Positions 4,466 to 45,896 of a stretch of 64,000 nt of DNA are shown in pieces. The notes beneath the pieces are model-generated. The model searched no databases. It saw nothing but the letters and a program-made list of their open reading frames with translations, and had not been told where the DNA came from. The stretch's first letter is position 1. Every line of letters begins with the position of its first letter. The stretch comes from Desulfobacterales bacterium. GTDB taxonomy: Bacteria; Desulfobacterota; Desulfobacteria; Desulfobacterales; UBA2245. Location of the stretch: NCBI GenBank assembly GCA_040771865.1, contig JAXGZF010000006.1, forward strand, positions 124,001-188,000, read 5' to 3'. Position numbers and translations under genes: made by a program.

Positions 4466-5242
4466 TTATTTCATTTTCCAGTTCGGGGAACGTTTTTCCT
4501 GAAAGGCGGCCAGCCCCTCCTGAGCATCTTCGGTAACGCAGAGCGACGCGAACAGATCGGTCAGATAATCCAGGCCCCTGTGGTAGGGCAAATCGTCCAT
4601 GGCATAAATTCCCTTCTTTCCGATCTGAAGCGCCAGTGGACTTTTTGCCGCCAGTTTTCCGGCCAGTTCCATCGTGGCGGCTTCCAGCTGATCGTCCGGG
4701 ACTACCTTGTTGACCAGGCCGAGCCGCAGGGCTTCGGCGGCGGAGATAATATCGCCGGTCAGCACCATTTCCAGGGCCTTCTTTCTTCCGGCCTGCCGCA
4801 TCAGGGGGGCCGCCGGCCCCAGGCAGATCAGCCCCACATTGATGGCCGTGGTGCCGAATTTGGCTCTTTCCGACGCAACCGCCATATCGCAGGCAAAGAC
4901 CAGTCCGGCGCCATTGGCAATGGCTATTCCGTGGACCGAGGCGATCACGGGTTTTTTCATCTTGGATATCGTGTGATTGTGCTCGTCCATCCCTTTCAGA
5001 AATTCTCGAAATTCCTTGTGGGATTTCCCCTTGAATTCATCCAGGGAGATGCCGGTTGAAAACTTACGGCCGTTTGCCCGAATCACAACGACGCGAACCT
5101 CGTCGTCGTTGTCCAGGGCCACAAGACTGTCATTCAGCTGGCGGGCAAAGGGAACGTTGAAGGTATTAAAGTCATCCGGCCGGTTCAGGGTAATGATGCC
5201 GATGTGCTGCTGCTTTTCAACGAGAATTTCCTTGTTGCTCAT
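4466..5242 (-). CDS. Enoyl-CoA hydratase/isomerase (crotonase superfamily) protein
   Basis: ITLNRP, KPVIASVHG, LVFACD, ISAAEALRLGLVNKVV and EGLAAFQEKRSP motifs; GGAGGA RBS. Confidence 0.92.
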   Translation of the reverse strand: MSNKEILVEKQQHIGIITLNRPDDFNTFNVPFARQLNDSLVALDNDDEVRVVVIRANGRKFSTGISLDEFKGKSHKEFREFLKGMDEHNHTISKMKKPVIASVHGIAIANGAGLVFACDMAVASERAKFGTTAINVGLICLGPAAPLMRQAGRKKALEMVLTGDIISAAEALRLGLVNKVVPDDQLEAATMELAGKLAAKSPLALQIGKKGIYAMDDLPYHRGLDYLTDLFASLCVTEDAQEGLAAFQEKRSPNWKMK

Positions 5243-38901: not shown

Positions 38902-39162
38902 TCATGCCTTGTTTCGCCGCTTATCCTCAAGAATGTCGCCCGCCCGTTTTAACAAAATTGATTTCCAGTTCTTGATCTGATTGGGGTGGAGCTGATAGTG
39001 CTCGGCCAGCTCTTTGAGGCGCCGTTTTCTATTGATGAATTCGGACACGACCTTTGCTTTGAAAGCACCGCTGTATGTGTTGCGTTTTCCTGCCGTTTCC
39101 GTACCTTTCGAGGGAACGTTTTCCGTTGACGCGGCGCTTTCCGGCGTTGTGGTATGATGCAT
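38902..39162 (-). CDS. Stand-alone IS3-family OrfA-like helix-turn-helix protein
   Basis: RNTYSGAFKAKVV...LKELAEHYQLHPNQIKNWK resembles the transposase OrfA HTH. No OrfB/DDE frame follows. Start uncertain (39162 or 39180). Confidence 0.7.
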   Translation of the reverse strand: MHHTTTPESAASTENVPSKGTETAGKRNTYSGAFKAKVVSEFINRKRRLKELAEHYQLHPNQIKNWKSILLKRAGDILEDKRRNKA

Positions 39163-39413
39163 GATGCTCTGTCCCCGCATGTTATTGATTCGGTTTTCCA
39201 ACCAGCAGCACACAGCCTTACATTCGGTTCAGTCGAAAATATTGATGAAATGGTTATACTTCGAAAGGGGTTTCCCCACTTTTTTTCTGCAAAATGATTG
39301 AACCTCATGGACAATTCATTGCTCGCGCCCCCTATCGAATCGTATTCCCATGGCTCCCGGAAGATGATATGCTTGAATCAAACGGGTGTAACTATTTTCC
39401 AAAGGAAACTGAA

Positions 39414-40661
39414 ATGGCGCCTTTTTTTAACATATTTTCCGGCCCGTCCGCCGAAAAGCTGGAGCAAAAGGGAGATGCCCTGTTCGAGGCCAAAGCCTGG
39501 GGCCAGGCCAAGCAGACTTACGAGCGTGCGCTGGAAAAGCTGGAAAAGCGTCCGGACCCTGATTCCGCTGATTGGAACAGGATACGCGACAAGATTCATC
39601 AGACCCGGGAAGCCCTGGCCGCGGAGCATCGGCAGAGCGCGGAAGATTTTGCGGAAAACGGATATCCGGACGAGGCCCGGAATCTGTTTGCCCTGGCATG
39701 GGAGCTCACCACGGATGCGGTATTCAAAAAGGAACTGGAAGAACGGATCCGTCAGATCGCATTGTTACGGACCCGGCAGGTGGATGAAGAATCGCCGGAT
39801 CTCTCTTATGCATTCGAAGAAGAATATGCGGAACAAACCTCGGACGATGAATATTTTATAGCTTTGTGCAGCGCCCTGCCCGAAAAGGTTCGCGATGTCT
39901 ATCCGCACTATGGAGAAGACTTTAAAACCGGGTATGTCGCACTGAACCTCGGTGATTTTGAGGTCGCCGCAGAGAATCTTTTACGCGCCATGGAGCAGAA
40001 CCCGCATCCGGAGAGTTACGTCCCTTTGGAACTGGCGACCGCCTATCTGAATCTGAACCGCCTCAACGAAGCTCAAGAGTTGCTCGAAGGCTTTCTGAAG
40101 CACCATCCTGAAGCCCTGCCCGCATATCAGCTTCTGTGCGAAATCTTCTGGGAACAAAGAGAGTTTCAACAGGCAGACGCCCTGCTTGCCTCCGTACCGG
40201 ATGAATTTGCCGAATCCGTGGCCGTTTCGCTTCTGAAGGGCGAAACGCTCTGCCGCGCCGGAAATTATCAAGAGGCCCGGAATTATTATTCCAGATTTCT
40301 GAAAACCTATGGCTGGAATCTGGCCGTCTCCCGCGAACTTGCCAAGATCTATGAAATCCACGGGGAGTCGCGAATGGCTCGTGGAATCTACAAGGAAATC
40401 CTCGACCGATATAAAAACTGCCGCGCACCGATCGACCCGGAAATCAAGCATCGATATGCGGAACTGTGTTTTTCGGCCGGCATGCACGGCCCCGAATTAT
40501 TGGAATTGTATCTTTCCCTGGTGCGGGAGGCGCCGGACAAAGCGGCGCAGCACTATGACCGCATCAGCCGGATTTACGAGGCCCAGGGCAATACGTATGA
40601 GGCAGAACGGTTCCGCGCGTTTTCAATCAAAGCCGGCGGTGGAAATTCCACCGAAGGCTGA
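39414..40661 (+). CDS. Tetratricopeptide-repeat protein
   Basis: Repeated helical TPR-like units (GDALFEAKAWGQAKQTYERAL, GDFEVAAENLLRA); AAGGA RBS before ATG 39414. Confidence 0.85.
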   Translation: MAPFFNIFSGPSAEKLEQKGDALFEAKAWGQAKQTYERALEKLEKRPDPDSADWNRIRDKIHQTREALAAEHRQSAEDFAENGYPDEARNLFALAWELTTDAVFKKELEERIRQIALLRTRQVDEESPDLSYAFEEEYAEQTSDDEYFIALCSALPEKVRDVYPHYGEDFKTGYVALNLGDFEVAAENLLRAMEQNPHPESYVPLELATAYLNLNRLNEAQELLEGFLKHHPEALPAYQLLCEIFWEQREFQQADALLASVPDEFAESVAVSLLKGETLCRAGNYQEARNYYSRFLKTYGWNLAVSRELAKIYEIHGESRMARGIYKEILDRYKNCRAPIDPEIKHRYAELCFSAGMHGPELLELYLSLVREAPDKAAQHYDRISRIYEAQGNTYEAERFRAFSIKAGGGNSTEG

Positions 40662-40902
40662 TCAAACGCGGAAAAATTCGAAATTAGGTCGAGGCCTGGT
40701 GAAACAGGGGTTGGTGACATCCGACTTCGAAAGGGAGTATTCAAAATTCTGTGTCACGGGCCAAAAAAAAATCCTCAGTACGGTCTTCGGCCCTTTTCAT
40801 GAGAACAAAGCAGCGCCATTTTTTGGGCCTGACGTTAAAGAAAAAGGATTCCCGCTCCTGTCATCGGCCGATCAAAAATTGCAGATAATACGCGAAGATT
40901 TT

Positions 40903-41061
40903 TCAGACGATATGTAAATCCGGATTGCCCTTGCGCCGTCGAATGACTCTGGCGCCGCAGGTTGCATTTTCGGAGGGCGAACTGTCTTTTTTGTCCTGAT
41001 CGATCTGTGAAAGCATCTGGTACAATCTGGCTTCAATCTCTTTTCTTTTGGCTTCGTCCAT
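40903..41061 (-). CDS. Small hypothetical protein (52 aa)
   Basis: MDEAKRKEIEARLYQMLSQI...ARVIRRRKGNPDLHIV; protein-like, with a purine-rich upstream region. Confidence 0.55.
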   Translation of the reverse strand: MDEAKRKEIEARLYQMLSQIDQDKKDSSPSENATCGARVIRRRKGNPDLHIV

Positions 41062-41426
41062 TAATCTTTCTCTGTTTTGACGGATTGTTTCCGTAGCACT
41101 CACCGTCCTCTGCATGCCGCCATCCACAGTAAAACGGCCGCGTAAGCCCCCGATGGCTTATTGGTGAGCCTTTGCGGTTCCATGGTACACCTGTGAATAC
41201 AGGAGTTTTTTAATGAAACGCAAACAACGGAATGCAAACCTGATTATGAATGCTGTCTGGTGCAGAGGGTTCTGAATTCCTGTTTTATTGCCGAAGTACA
41301 GCAATTTTTTTGTCTCTATACCAAATGGCGGGCATTGGCAAGCATTAAATGCGGAGGGCAAATCGTTTTAATTTCGAGAAGGAAATCTGTCTGCGTAGTT
41401 GCTTCGAAGAGCTCATACCCGATTTG

Positions 41427-41571
41427 GTAGGTTGTTGAAAACTAAGCCAAGGGCTGCCATGCTGTGTTGCGCCGTTCTATTCAATGCTTCACGCATGTGC
41501 TTGAATAGGATGCGCTTTTCGTATCGCCACGCGCCTTGCATGACGATTGGATTCCCGTTTTCCAACACCCT
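41427..41571. mobile_element. Diverged, inverted copy of MITE-like element family A
   Basis: The reverse complement (agggtgttggaaaac...gcaaggcgcgtggcgatacgaaaagcgcatcctattcaagcacat...ttttcaacaacct) aligns end to end with 14165-14313. Confidence 0.8.
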
Positions 41572-41585
41572 TTTCGGTATCGGAA

Positions 41586-41635
41586 CAAGGGGTTCGATGT
41601 TTTATATATTCAATGAATTGTCTTCGAACCCCTTG
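41586..41635. repeat. Perfect 12-bp inverted repeat with AT-rich 26-nt spacer
   Basis: caaggggttcga ... tcgaaccccttg, just downstream of the 67-aa ORF. Confidence 0.6.
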
Positions 41636-41680
41636 CCCCCTCCCTGTTTCCAGCCCCGATCAAGGACTTTGAGAACCCGG

Positions 41681-41884
41681 TTAAACGACCCTTACTGCCG
41701 ATGTGCGCGTTATACCGGTTCCGCTTTTAAAAAACACAAAAAAGGGCTGATCAACAGATAGGTTGTCCAGATGGATCTTATTTCCCTTATTGTCCTCCAG
41801 ATAACAGGCAAACATGTTCAGGCTTTTCCGATAAAGTCTTCCCATACTGGAAACCTCGAAGATCCGATCACGAATTTCCGACAT
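41681..41884 (-). CDS. Small hypothetical protein (67 aa) downstream of cobalamin riboswitch
   Basis: Strong RBS AAAGGAG 8 nt before the ATG; the only clear ORF after the riboswitch. Confidence 0.7.
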   Translation of the reverse strand: MSEIRDRIFEVSSMGRLYRKSLNMFACYLEDNKGNKIHLDNLSVDQPFFVFFKSGTGITRTSAVRVV

Positions 41885-42033
41885 TTGAATTGCTCCTTTC
41901 TTTAATGTGGTTTGTGTTCCGTGCGTCTTGCAGTAGCGGGTTTTCCTTGACAGGCCCGCTCGATGGCAGTCGCAGGTAACTCTTTGAAGACACGGATTAT
42001 TTCCGCATGCAATGTTTAAAAACTCCGGTTGCC

Positions 42034-42072
42034 AAAAAAAATCCCCGAACCTGACAGAACAGGTCCGGGGAT
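42034..42072 (-). terminator. Intrinsic terminator in riboswitch expression platform
   Basis: Minus strand atccccggacctg-ttctgt-caggttcggggat followed by a run of T. Confidence 0.85.
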
Positions 42073-42139
42073 ACCGTTTTTAATCCTCGGTCGAAAAGCC
42101 ATGCCCTTTTACCGCGAAAGGCAATGCAAAAAAACTGGC

Positions 42140-42296
42140 TGCAAGCAGGTCTTCCGGCTTCCGGATCATCCTACTGGTCGCGTCTTCCCATCCTTTCAGA
42201 CAGTGACATGCTTGCGACGTTCGTCCCCGGTTACGGCGGCGGGTCCGCGACGGATTCACACCGTCTTCCCGATTAAGGCCCTTAGGGCCGCTTGCA
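42140..42296 (-). promoter_or_regulatory. Cobalamin (B12) riboswitch
   Basis: Minus strand has aatcgggaagacggtgtgaatccgtcgcggacccgccgccgtaa, cactg...gggaag and B12-box agccggaagacctgc. P1 is formed by tgcaagcgg / ctgcttgca. Confidence 0.92.
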
Positions 42297-42509
42297 ATGA
42301 TTGAACACTTACAATAACTTATTAAAAATTGTCAAGAATTTTCTCACAGAATTTTCTCAAATTCAAAGTGGAATCAATCCGACGGTGATTTTTACGACTG
42401 TCTGTTTCTGTCTCGGCCTTTCTGAAACCGCCCGTCTGCACAGAGGAGATCATAAGCGCTGCTCCGATTGATGGGATGTTGAGATATGGTTTCGGTTCGT
42501 CGGCATGTG

Positions 42510-42538
42510 TTGACTTTTCCTGCCGGTTTTTCTATAAG
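42510..42538 (+). promoter_or_regulatory. Putative sigma70 promoter for the HTH-PBP regulator
   Basis: TTGACT-17 nt-TATAAG, about 50 nt upstream of ATG 42589. Confidence 0.55.
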
Positions 42539-42588
42539 AGACCTGTAAGAAGCTTGTTTCAATATAAAATCAACCTATTCGATTTCAC

Positions 42589-43509
42589 ATGCAAAAACTG
42601 CTTTCCACCAAAGAGGTCGCCCAATTTTTAGGTGTAAACGAAAAGATGGTTTACACCCTGATATCCGAAAAGAAACTGCCCGCCACCAAAATTACGGGGA
42701 AGTGGATTTTCCCCCAGCATCTTGTCGAGCAGTGGATCGAGGTAAACACCAGCAATTATCCGACTTCCCGTCAGATGCCTGAAAATCAGGGGCTGCTGGT
42801 TATTATCGGCAGCCATGATCCGCTTCTGGAAAAAACCATATCGCTGTTCAATGCGCTTTCCGGCGACTTTACGGCGGTTTTCGGATGCACGGGAAGCATG
42901 GGCGGACTCAAGGCCCTTCGCCAAAAACGCTGCCACATCGCCACAAGTCATCTGGTCGAGGAAAGCTCCGGAGAATACAATTTTGATTTTGCACACCGGG
43001 AGCTTGAGGTACAGCCCGCGGTGATCAATTTCAGCCGCAGGGAACAGGGTCTGATGGTCCGGCAGGGCAATCCGAAACATATTTTGAAAATCTCCGATCT
43101 TTCCAGGCCGGGACTTCGTATTGCCAACCGGCCCCTTGGAACCGGAACCCGTCTTCTGCTGGACCGGGAACTCAGAAAAAACGAAATCCCCGTCGATCAT
43201 ATTTCCGGATATGAAAAGGAATTTTTTACCCATTTGGATGCAGGGCTTGAGATTCTGGCCGGCCGTGCGGATGCGGCTTTAGGCATTCGTGCTGTGGCCG
43301 CGATGCTGGGCTTGGCCTTCATTCCGGTCTGCTGGGAACGCTATGATCTGCTGATTTCAAAAGACCGGTTCTTTGAGCCCGGCGTACAGCAATTTATTGA
43401 AATGCTCAACTCCAAAGCCTTTGCCGATACGGCCAGAACCTTTCCAGAAGGTTATGATCTTAGCCTGTGCGGCAAAATGCTTTTCGGTCCAAAGCCATCG
43501 AGCTCCTGA
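42589..43509 (+). CDS. Excisionase-type HTH + PBP-like (molybdate/tungstate-binding) transcriptional regulator
   Basis: LLSTKEVAQFLGVNEKMVY..ITGKWIFP HTH, then GSHD, GSMGG, REQGL, NRPLGTGTR and FTHLD, similar to the PBP domain of the MoeA fusion. Confidence 0.88.
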   Translation: MQKLLSTKEVAQFLGVNEKMVYTLISEKKLPATKITGKWIFPQHLVEQWIEVNTSNYPTSRQMPENQGLLVIIGSHDPLLEKTISLFNALSGDFTAVFGCTGSMGGLKALRQKRCHIATSHLVEESSGEYNFDFAHRELEVQPAVINFSRREQGLMVRQGNPKHILKISDLSRPGLRIANRPLGTGTRLLLDRELRKNEIPVDHISGYEKEFFTHLDAGLEILAGRADAALGIRAVAAMLGLAFIPVCWERYDLLISKDRFFEPGVQQFIEMLNSKAFADTARTFPEGYDLSLCGKMLFGPKPSSS

Positions 43510-43910: not shown

Positions 43911-45896
43911 TTAGAACAGCTGAAGCCGATTTCGGTAAGCGTCGATCACGACATCGGGATCTCCGGTGATGATGATGTTGTCCGCGATCCATTCGGGTGC
44001 GCGGCGGGACCGGATCATCTCCAGAATCTGGGTGTGCAGCCCCCCCCAGTAATCTCCCTTTCCCTCGGTGTCAAAAAGAATCACCGGAACGCGGTCCAAA
44101 ATTGCAAGCTTCATATTGCACAGGGTAATGCCCAGTTCTTCCAGAGAGCCGATGCCGCCGATGTTGAATATGGGAAAAGAGGCCACCTCGAACCATTTCT
44201 GCCGGCTGTGGCGGCAGGTGGCTTGAAACACCTGACAGAAATCCACATCCGTGGTCATGGGCTGATCGGTAATATCCAGATAGTTGGCGCCGGACAGGAT
44301 TCCATGTTTTCTTGCCAGGGTGTTGACGTGCTCCATCACACCGCTGCCGCCGCCGGTAACGATGCCGATGTTCTGTCCCCAGTAGTCCACCAGTGCCTTA
44401 ATCAGTTCTTCCAGCCGCCGGACTCCTGCCTCTGAAAGTTCCAGGTTGGAACCGAAAAATGCAAACAGCATGGACCTGTGGAAGTCTGTCAGGCGTTCCG
44501 GCGCTACGAAATAGCCTTTGCCGTCGCGCATGGCATGAACCATCAGGCGGCTGTTCAGACGTGAAACCCAGAACACATCGATGCCGAAGTCATGATAATC
44601 CTGAAGCCGGTTGTGATCCAGCTGGGAAAGAAACTGGCCGTGCTCCCGGGAGGGCTCGAAAAAATAAAAAGATTCGATCTGGTTGGTTCCATTGCAGGCC
44701 AGATTGATGATATCCCGATGCTCGATGATATTGGGGAAATATTTCAGCGCCAGACTGACCGATTCGCCGTTAAGCGCCCTGGCGATTTTGGATGTGGCAA
44801 ATACCTGAGCGCAGGAACTGTTGCGTGTGAAAATCCGTCGCTGAAGCGCGCAGACCGGCTGGCTGACCGTACATTGTTCGTCCGGGCCGTTCACATATAT
44901 CTCGGCTTTTGCCAGGGCCTTGGGCTGAGGGCGAACGATGGCCGCCGGCTTTGCCAGAAAGGGGCAGGTATCGGATTTGACCTCGCTCAGGCGATTTTCA
45001 AACCAGCGCATCTCATCGTATGTATAGGTCGGCGCGTTGCTGAATGTGTTTTCTCCTACATCAAGGAATTCGGGCTTCGGCGCCCGATAAATTCTGGCCG
45101 AAATGAGCGGATTGACGATGGGATGTCTGCTCCGGTTCACGATTTCCAGATAGATTCCGATTCCTCGTGTTTTGATCGGATCCAGAATGGTTGCCGGAAG
45201 ATGCCGGCCGAGTTCGGATCCGGCCTGAAGCACGACGTAATGTTCATTGAGAAACATGGAACAGGTGGTGATTACCCCCTGCCCCGGAGGAATGATCAGC
45301 GCCGATACCTTTTCCTTGATCTGATAGCGGTTGAGAATTTCCCGGCCGTTTTCCTTGAAAAGAATTCGGCCCAATATTTCCTGGCTCAGAGGCTCCCTGA
45401 GCTTGCATACCGCCCGGTGAGGCGCAATCAGAATGCTTCCGTCGCTGGAAATCGTCGTGGATGCAGGCAGCTTGAGCTGGGCCCGTTCAATGGCCTCAAG
45501 AACCTCATCGGAGGTCAACATGGCCTCCGGATCGCAGAACACCAGGCGGCCTACGGCAAGACCGGTGGTAAAAAAATCCTTGAACGCATACAGACCCGGG
45601 TAACCCGGGATTTCCGACGAGGCTGTCAGCGTCAGGGTCAGAATGTCCTTCTCAAGGCAGTTCGTTTGGGGAGATTGACATTCGATCTGGATTCCCAGCC
45701 GGGCGATTCGCGACCTTTCGCTGAAGATCAGATTCTCAGGCTGCGTCTTGAGCCTGTGGATCAGAATTTCTGAAACCCTGAAGGCCGTTCGGAAGGTGAT
45801 GGTTTCCGTATTGGATTCCAAAACCTCGGTGATAATTCCGTCCTCGGACTGGAGCAGGCCTCGAAACAGGGAATCTTCCATGGATTTTTTCAACAT
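43911..45896 (-). CDS. Large multidomain LOG (SLOG) family protein
   Basis: C-terminal FFGS, VTGGGSGVME, RQ and GGIGSLEE (PGGxGTxxE-like) motifs; about 470-aa N-terminal extension. Confidence 0.85.
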   Translation of the reverse strand: MLKKSMEDSLFRGLLQSEDGIITEVLESNTETITFRTAFRVSEILIHRLKTQPENLIFSERSRIARLGIQIECQSPQTNCLEKDILTLTLTASSEIPGYPGLYAFKDFFTTGLAVGRLVFCDPEAMLTSDEVLEAIERAQLKLPASTTISSDGSILIAPHRAVCKLREPLSQEILGRILFKENGREILNRYQIKEKVSALIIPPGQGVITTCSMFLNEHYVVLQAGSELGRHLPATILDPIKTRGIGIYLEIVNRSRHPIVNPLISARIYRAPKPEFLDVGENTFSNAPTYTYDEMRWFENRLSEVKSDTCPFLAKPAAIVRPQPKALAKAEIYVNGPDEQCTVSQPVCALQRRIFTRNSSCAQVFATSKIARALNGESVSLALKYFPNIIEHRDIINLACNGTNQIESFYFFEPSREHGQFLSQLDHNRLQDYHDFGIDVFWVSRLNSRLMVHAMRDGKGYFVAPERLTDFHRSMLFAFFGSNLELSEAGVRRLEELIKALVDYWGQNIGIVTGGGSGVMEHVNTLARKHGILSGANYLDITDQPMTTDVDFCQVFQATCRHSRQKWFEVASFPIFNIGGIGSLEELGITLCNMKLAILDRVPVILFDTEGKGDYWGGLHTQILEMIRSRRAPEWIADNIIITGDPDVVIDAYRNRLQLF

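Follow-up and report, generated by a model that had tools for sequence, protein, structure and literature searches.

Cobalamin riboswitches of the RF00174 class in δ-proteobacteria consist of a full aptamer followed by an intrinsic terminator, as with btuCDF, cbiK-cbiL and nrdDG, and in Desulfovibrio such B12 elements control cbiK-cbiL and btuCDF, according to the available portion of PMC545781. In this same portion, B12 scarcity is the condition under which corrinoid uptake genes of δ-proteobacteria are expressed. The riboswitch described here lies in a 64-kb stretch of Desulfobacterales DNA (hereafter the window, meaning the whole stretch that was analysed); it is an ordinary member of this known class, and its novelty lies in its target. 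Unlike the usual targets of RF00174 elements, the gene that it precedes encodes neither a transporter nor a biosynthetic enzyme nor a B12-independent isozyme but a 67-aa protein of no known family. Riboswitches provide ligand-specific clues to the roles of uncharacterised genes, and the high-confidence B12 switch in the window has one evident target, a member of a conserved small-protein family that carries neither annotation nor known domain. Small proteins are routinely overlooked in annotation, and B12 exchange shapes anaerobic communities, sulfate reducers included.

The nearest functional parallels come from haem acquisition. HemP, HmuP and ChuP are small proteins from TonB-dependent haem-uptake operons and act as positive regulators of receptor genes, as stated in the part of PMC9131926 available to us. 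Insofar as that text characterises them, the 67-aa protein is like HemP/HmuP/ChuP in being small and soluble and in being encoded, in three of four lineages (L002–L004), within TonB-dependent tetrapyrrole-uptake loci (PMC9131926). The available text also has HemP/HmuP/ChuP expressed when the nutrient is scarce (PMC9131926), a likeness that the window protein would share by its predicted switch logic. The window protein is unlike HemP and HmuP in showing no sequence kinship with them, in that none of 14 family members matched Pfam hemP at E ≤ 10, and in being placed under a B12 riboswitch rather than Fur. Nor did Foldseek comparison against the PDB link its fold to HemP/HmuP or to any characterised protein.

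The riboswitch and its expression platform

Read in the direction of transcription, the locus comprises the following features.

42330–42335, minus strand: candidate -35 hexamer TTGACA of the riboswitch promoter, with an indistinct -10 (read from the sequence)
42127–42310, minus strand: cobalamin riboswitch aptamer, RF00174 (covariance-model match)
42033–42126, minus strand: expression platform, made up of a linker hairpin (42123–42102) and an intrinsic terminator (terminator scan and fold)
41885–42032, minus strand: leader from terminator to start codon (sequence)
41681–41884, minus strand: 67-aa ORF with ATG start, of an unnamed Desulfobacterota small-protein family (ORF list, homologues, dN/dS, AlphaFold2)
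41582–41639, minus strand: 3′ stem-loop of up to 15 pairs with a 26-nt A+T-rich loop and no U-run (inverted-repeat search)

The Rfam match to the aptamer scored 109.9 bits (gathering score 31.5; E 1.2e-26) and spanned model positions 1–189 of 189, i.e. the full length of RF00174. It was the sole Rfam match across the 64-kb window, and a permissive Rfam rescan of 40500–42600 again gave the cobalamin aptamer as the only convincing match. The orthologous aptamer in L001, a Desulfobacteraceae MAG that is syntenic with the window and has its riboswitch directly 5′ of the small ORF, scored 103.5 bits; the two aptamers are 92–97% identical, while nearby intergenic flanks are 65–82% identical. The sequence CTTGACA is invariant just 5′ of the aptamers in the window, L001 and L003 and is a candidate for the -35 element of the riboswitch promoter. 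A consensus promoter scan called no full promoter upstream of the window aptamer, and at the equivalent place in L003 the same scan called TTGACA-18-AATACT.

Fifty-five nucleotides (55 nt) separate the aptamer from a terminator-like hairpin at 42072–42041 (minus strand), which in the terminator scan has 13 pairs, 8 of them G-C, a loop of 6 and a T-run after it. The platform region as a whole (42135–42025) folds at -40.9 kcal/mol, with z = -3.16 relative to 200 shuffles. The 5′ arm of the terminator is complementary to the aptamer segment CCGGGGA, forming a duplex of -15.1 kcal/mol versus -23.7 kcal/mol for the two terminator arms, and this pairing is present in the MFE structure of a transcript truncated before the 3′ arm, suggestive of a possible antiterminator. 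By thermodynamic prediction, then, the platform has the properties of a terminator/antiterminator switch. The L003 riboswitch is followed by an identical terminator stem sequence.

The leader that follows is 156 nt long and contains no promoter-like site on the same strand in the consensus promoter scan; the ORF is thus expected to be transcribed from the riboswitch promoter. Its identity to L001, 75–90%, is below that of the aptamer and the ORF. An AAGGAG ribosome-binding site at 41893–41898 (minus strand) ends 8 nt before the ATG. The complete minus-strand B12 aptamer, the strong intrinsic terminator and the excellent ribosome-binding site that the initial annotation had proposed were thus all borne out; the aptamer extends 14 nt past the upper coordinate given there.

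Conservation of the 67-aa ORF

The peptide encoded by the ORF is identical to the one quoted in the initial annotation. Three more clusters, each with a length of exactly 67 aa and 69–88% identical to it, came from a word-indexed search, and an unrestricted HMMER search over 1.84 billion representatives returned 10 proteins at E ≤ 0.001, nine of which are 62–88 aa in length. The tenth, P0013, a eukaryotic 1363-aa Ig-repeat protein matched in 4 stretches at E 1.5e-4, was judged to be spurious and was excluded from every alignment. With a profile of 14 members the family grew to at least 56 clusters of 62–91 aa, all labelled hypothetical. Its taxonomic range was taken from the names given among the 56 clusters, and every named member belongs to the Desulfobacterota (Desulfobacterales, Desulfococcaceae, "Deltaproteobacteria bacterium" and Desulfogranum). 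By these sequence comparisons the family appears to be an unnamed one that is so far known from Desulfobacterota; no homologues were found on plasmids. A published description of such a small protein was not found in the literature, which is weak evidence that it is undescribed, since the family has no name to search by. Because the cultured species Desulfosarcina cetonica carries a homologue, the ideas developed below are testable.

The doubt raised at the outset that the ORF might be a fragment or an orphan is removed by this set of homologues. As to derivation from a larger gene, the HMMER relatives of 62–88 aa rule it out together with a profile search of proteins of 155–2000 aa, which revealed no longer or fused form, although by the tool's own note this search is weak evidence. 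In six of six pairwise codon comparisons among the window, L001, L002 and L003, dN/dS was 0.13–0.25. Between the window and L001 the ORF, intact and full length in both, has 9 synonymous and 7 non-synonymous differences (dN/dS 0.19) and is 88–97% identical. These patterns of substitution indicate that the ORF is a real, conserved gene and that it is under purifying selection.

Sequence and predicted fold of the protein

Relatives of the protein were found in none of Pfam, NCBIfam or the PDB sequences, either with the protein by itself or with 14 members as queries at E ≤ 10. The Pfam scan of the 14 members at that threshold yielded just two unrelated single-member matches, the window protein itself matched 0 Pfam families at E ≤ 0.1, and its sole PHROG match (E 0.041), to an entry whose own annotation is function-less, was insignificant. 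AlphaFold2 models built from 14 and 58 sequences (pLDDT 86.5 and 87.8, respectively) contain five strands and one helix, arranged as strands 8–11 and 15–18, a helix at 19–25, a strand at 26–30, a loop, and a long hairpin at 47–54/57–65. Foldseek searches of the PDB with two monomer models gave 0 matches at E ≤ 0.001, the best E-values being 1.1 and 1.6. Two passes through the ESM Atlas were set aside, the first with weak integrase-N-terminal look-alikes whose recognition fell under the stated threshold, and the second with generic beta-sandwich rows that derived from the Atlas's own low-confidence model (pLDDT 0.57). The N-terminal strand-strand-helix-strand half bears what we take to be a resemblance to the swapped-hairpin DNA-binding domain of AbrB/MazE; no Pfam match to AbrB/MazE was obtained at E ≤ 10, and no such chain was among the Foldseek PDB matches listed for the monomer models.

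In the 58-sequence alignment, G15, S21, F25, F52 and R65 are invariant and L22, G34, T56, T59, R60 and T61 nearly so, the latter forming an SGTG-x-TRTS hairpin. A membrane-like segment is present in 0 of the 58 members, so the protein should be soluble and is presumably cytoplasmic. Cys is absent in 44 of the 58 members and His in 32, no column is dominated by either residue, and the median pI of the family is 6.2. Neither a B12-binding domain, in Pfam and NCBIfam, nor conserved His/Cys ligands, in the alignment, were found. As judged from the alignment, the usual kinds of metal or corrin ligand are not conserved in the family, which is not uniformly basic either.

Gene context in relatives and in the window

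Gene contexts were read in the window and in four loci (L001–L004), compared with at least 56 clusters in the family; the four loci came from a scan of genome contigs with narrow peptide patterns. Because the window and L001 are about 93% identical in nucleotide sequence they were counted as one lineage, leaving four independent lineages.

In L002, a Desulfobacterales MAG, the small ORF follows genes for DUF3450, long ExbB-like, ExbB, ExbD, TonB and TPR proteins, and it is itself followed by CcsA-like, ResB-like, Peripla_BP_2, FecCD and ABC ATPase genes. L004, from D. cetonica JCM 12296, where the homologue lies at 4684–4896, keeps this order from the long ExbB-like gene to the ResB-like gene. 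The set directly upstream of the small ORF in both loci has the composition of TonB2-type clusters, in the same order; in Vibrio the names TtpB, TtpC and TtpD are used for such clusters. The described TonB2-type clusters end, to our knowledge, with the TPR gene, whereas in L002 and L004 the gene for the small, presumably cytoplasmic protein and the CcsA-/ResB-like pair come after it. In L004 the small ORF starts either at a GTG that overlaps the stop codon of the TPR gene or at an ATG 5 nt past it, an arrangement that suggests translational coupling of the two. A TonB2-type cluster is absent from the window itself. No riboswitch was detected in L002 or L004 at E ≤ 1, a result that is uninformative because the operon starts lie beyond the stretches scanned, and for the same reason these two systems could have haem or a siderophore, and not a corrinoid, as their substrate. 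As an observation in its own right, both loci (L002 1–10201, L004 1–6925) join a TonB2-type energiser set, including the TPR lipoprotein, to a CcsA-like/ResB-like pair and a BtuFCD-like ABC importer; it is unusual for cytochrome-c-biogenesis-type haem handlers to accompany an uptake system in this way.

L003, another Desulfobacterales MAG, carries a cobalamin riboswitch of 124.2 bits and its terminator, followed in order by genes for DUF2162, an ExbB-like protein, DUF2149 and a TonB-dependent receptor, the small ORF, and cbiK. The receptor (636 aa) has as its best NCBIfam match the TonB-B12 model, under the cut-off of that model. The gap of 542 nt between the receptor gene and the small ORF holds a promoter-like site, so that the small ORF of L003 may escape the riboswitch. 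A direct repeat of ~65 nt (4502–4565 and 4916–4980), each copy with an A+T-rich palindrome as seen by eye, flanks ~350 nt directly upstream of the small ORF and could be an operator/promoter duplication or an insertion scar. The DUF2162, ExbB-like and DUF2149 genes (756–2576), which are the first behind the 124-bit riboswitch and precede the BtuB-like receptor gene, may constitute another set of energiser or transporter components through which corrinoid or cobalt is taken up.

A same-strand upstream cobalamin riboswitch is therefore present in two of the four independent lineages. On whether homologues also follow B12 riboswitches, a check that the initial annotation had asked for, these two lineages support a tie to B12; none was detected in the L002 and L004 stretches. 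TonB/ABC uptake genes adjoin the small ORF in three lineages (L002, L003 and L004), and cbiK is the next gene in one (L003). Judged by gene content (a BtuB-like receptor, a TonB2-type set, a BtuFCD-like transporter, CcsA-/ResB-like proteins and cbiK), the loci of the relatives probably serve the uptake of a tetrapyrrole-type nutrient, and the small gene recurs with TonB-system genes on one side and BtuFCD-/CcsA-/ResB-like genes on the other, which suggests that its product is a so far unrecognised part of the machinery for acquiring corrinoids or tetrapyrroles.

In the window, Pfam identified no cobalamin or cobalt gene among those ORFs of the 29–56 kb interval that were examined, so the reported absence of a B12 gene near the riboswitch holds for this interval. 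The Pfam neighbours there include RND efflux, TPR, HTH_17+PBP_like regulator, LOG-like, TRAP transporter, APH phosphotransferase, HtpG and other proteins. A tblastn search of the window with 20 proteins from the operons of relatives (E ≤ 0.01) found no operon relics; the small protein alone matched.

The region 3′ of the ORF

The inverted repeat noted earlier beyond the ORF was located as a perfect 12-nt repeat with arms at 41586–41597 and 41624–41635, 26 nt between them, lying 46 nt after the stop codon. The window, L001 and L002 share a consensus structure for this stem-loop, in which 2 of 15 pairs have been maintained by changes in both arms; the region is not alignable in L003 or L004. The hairpin may mark the 3′ end of the message or stabilise it. 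An integron attC reading was dropped upon inspection by eye, as a core-site-like motif is lacking and the gene is operon-embedded elsewhere.

The MITE that had been placed beyond the repeat was not upheld. No second copy is present in the window, the terminal repeats are unconvincing (the best terminal inverted pair is 14 nt at 86%), and the stretch is collinear, without a large indel, in the 91%-identical relative L001. The copy search covered the window, and presence or absence was compared with L001; the repeats found in the window amount to six short direct-repeat families and one inverted pair, none of which falls in 40.6–41.7 kb. DNA downstream of the ORF is 65–85% identical to L001. A second small ORF is found at 40903–41127 (minus strand), ~620 nt downstream of the 67-aa gene and on the same strand, which encodes 74 aa from a GTG start or 52 aa from an ATG at 41061. 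It is 93–97% identical in nucleotide sequence to L001, with flanks at 65–85%, is absent from L002–L004, and has no Pfam or PHROG family beyond E ~0.03–0.1.

Proposed role of the protein and alternative explanations

The reading that we prefer, and in which we place roughly even confidence, is that the 67-aa protein assists corrinoid (tetrapyrrole) uptake as a cytoplasmic accessory factor repressed by B12, and is expressed from a monocistronic mRNA that is led by a terminating riboswitch; its biochemical role is deduced from context. By this proposal the transcription-terminating cobalamin riboswitch would form the 5′ leader of the message. When adenosylcobalamin is plentiful, the aptamer would fold, the 13-bp terminator would form, and the gene would be off. 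Conversely, when B12 is scarce, CCGGGGA would pair with the 5′ arm of the terminator, permitting read-through along the leader into the ORF, and the protein would be made only under this condition. We infer this off-switch logic, and hence induction under B12 limitation, from the predicted structures. The protein would then serve as a protein-binding adaptor or regulator of the uptake machinery, in the manner of HemP/HmuP/ChuP without being their kin. Its assignment as an accessory factor of corrinoid acquisition follows from its recurrent place in TonB/ABC uptake loci and beside cbiK. With neither Cys nor His conserved and a median pI of 6.2, the family offers no positive indication that it binds a ligand or nucleic acid. 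Counting against a role in uptake is the absence of the presumed partner genes from the window.

The new element is an unannotated family of small proteins for which no relatives were detectable, in sequence or among solved folds, and whose context ties it to B12 and to TonB-dependent uptake. A bolder proposal, which we regard as speculative and unlikely, is that B12 starvation induces a hitherto unrecognised class of small regulators or adaptors, of which this protein is the first and whose fold has no precedent among solved structures; it would either sense corrinoid supply or couple the TonB2-type energiser and the CcsA/ResB-like pair to corrinoid import. If this is true, the protein would be to corrinoids what HemP/HmuP are to haem, and would fill a cytoplasmic gap in what is known of B12 uptake by sulfate-reducing Desulfobacterota.

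The initial annotation had suggested an undescribed B12-linked small protein, perhaps a cobalt or corrinoid chaperone or a regulator, and the first part of this suggestion is sustained by the unnamed family and its contextual tie to B12. A cytoplasmic chaperone that binds corrinoid or cobalt and takes over the cofactor or metal once imported would suit the B12 riboswitch control, the uptake genes and the cobaltochelatase gene cbiK that neighbour the gene in relatives, and the haem binding reported for the functional analogues ChuP and HmuP in the available part of PMC9131926. The lack of conserved Cys or His weakens this idea, however, as does the failure of the Pfam and NCBIfam searches to place the protein in a B12-binding or metal-chaperone family, and 67 aa is small for enclosing a corrinoid unless the protein is oligomeric, all of which makes a chaperone unlikely. 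The stump of a deleted operon, also suggested there, would require that the transport genes were deleted from an L003-like riboswitch-led operon, so that the riboswitch came to stand directly before the final small gene, which would now have no role. As a history this is possible: relatives carry the gene within operons, the window lacks the partner genes, and the window riboswitch shares its promoter -35 and terminator stem sequences with the riboswitch of the L003 operon, although the common terminator stem is also explicable by the need to mimic a conserved aptamer segment. That the gene is now a mere leftover is nonetheless improbable in view of its intact, full-length state in both the window and L001 with the dN/dS indicative of purifying selection, the better conservation of aptamer and ORF than of their flanks, and the failure of the tblastn search with operon proteins to uncover remnants in the window.

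It is also conceivable that the 67-aa gene is not the real target, and that a longer transcript reads through the 3′ hairpin into the second small ORF (41061–40903) or runs antisense into the convergent TPR gene. The hairpin after the 67-aa ORF has no U-run, the next terminator-like site on the minus strand is at 40654–40633, and the second ORF on this strand is as well conserved in L001 as noted above, all of which would accommodate such a transcript. Yet the second ORF is without family and does not occur in L002–L004, the ~620 nt between the two ORFs is poorly conserved (65–85%), and a conserved extended -10-like stretch seen by eye before the second ORF may provide it with a promoter of its own; we consider this explanation very unlikely. 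The accessory factor of corrinoid uptake encoded by a monocistronic message is thus the reading that we retain.

Other features of the window

The intergenic region upstream of the candidate -35 element is shared with a divergent regulator gene at 42589–43509 (plus strand), the product of which combines an excisionase-type HTH with a PBP_like (molybdate/tungstate-type) domain and is conserved in L001. Within this common region, just upstream of the candidate -35, is a palindrome, GAATTT-N4-AAATTC, at 42349–42364; this pattern occurs at 2 sites in the window versus 0.28 expected, and the palindrome is poorly kept in L001. Beyond the regulator gene lies that for a 661-aa protein (43911–45896, minus strand), also conserved in L001, the last ~100–170 residues of which weakly match the LOG/TIGR00730 Rossmann family, near or below curated cut-offs, while its long N-terminal part is without family. 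On the other side of the locus, between the RND pump gene and the TPR gene, a lone 103-aa ORF (38902–39213, minus strand) with an HTH_Tnp_1 transposase domain has the appearance of an insertion-sequence orfA-like remnant.
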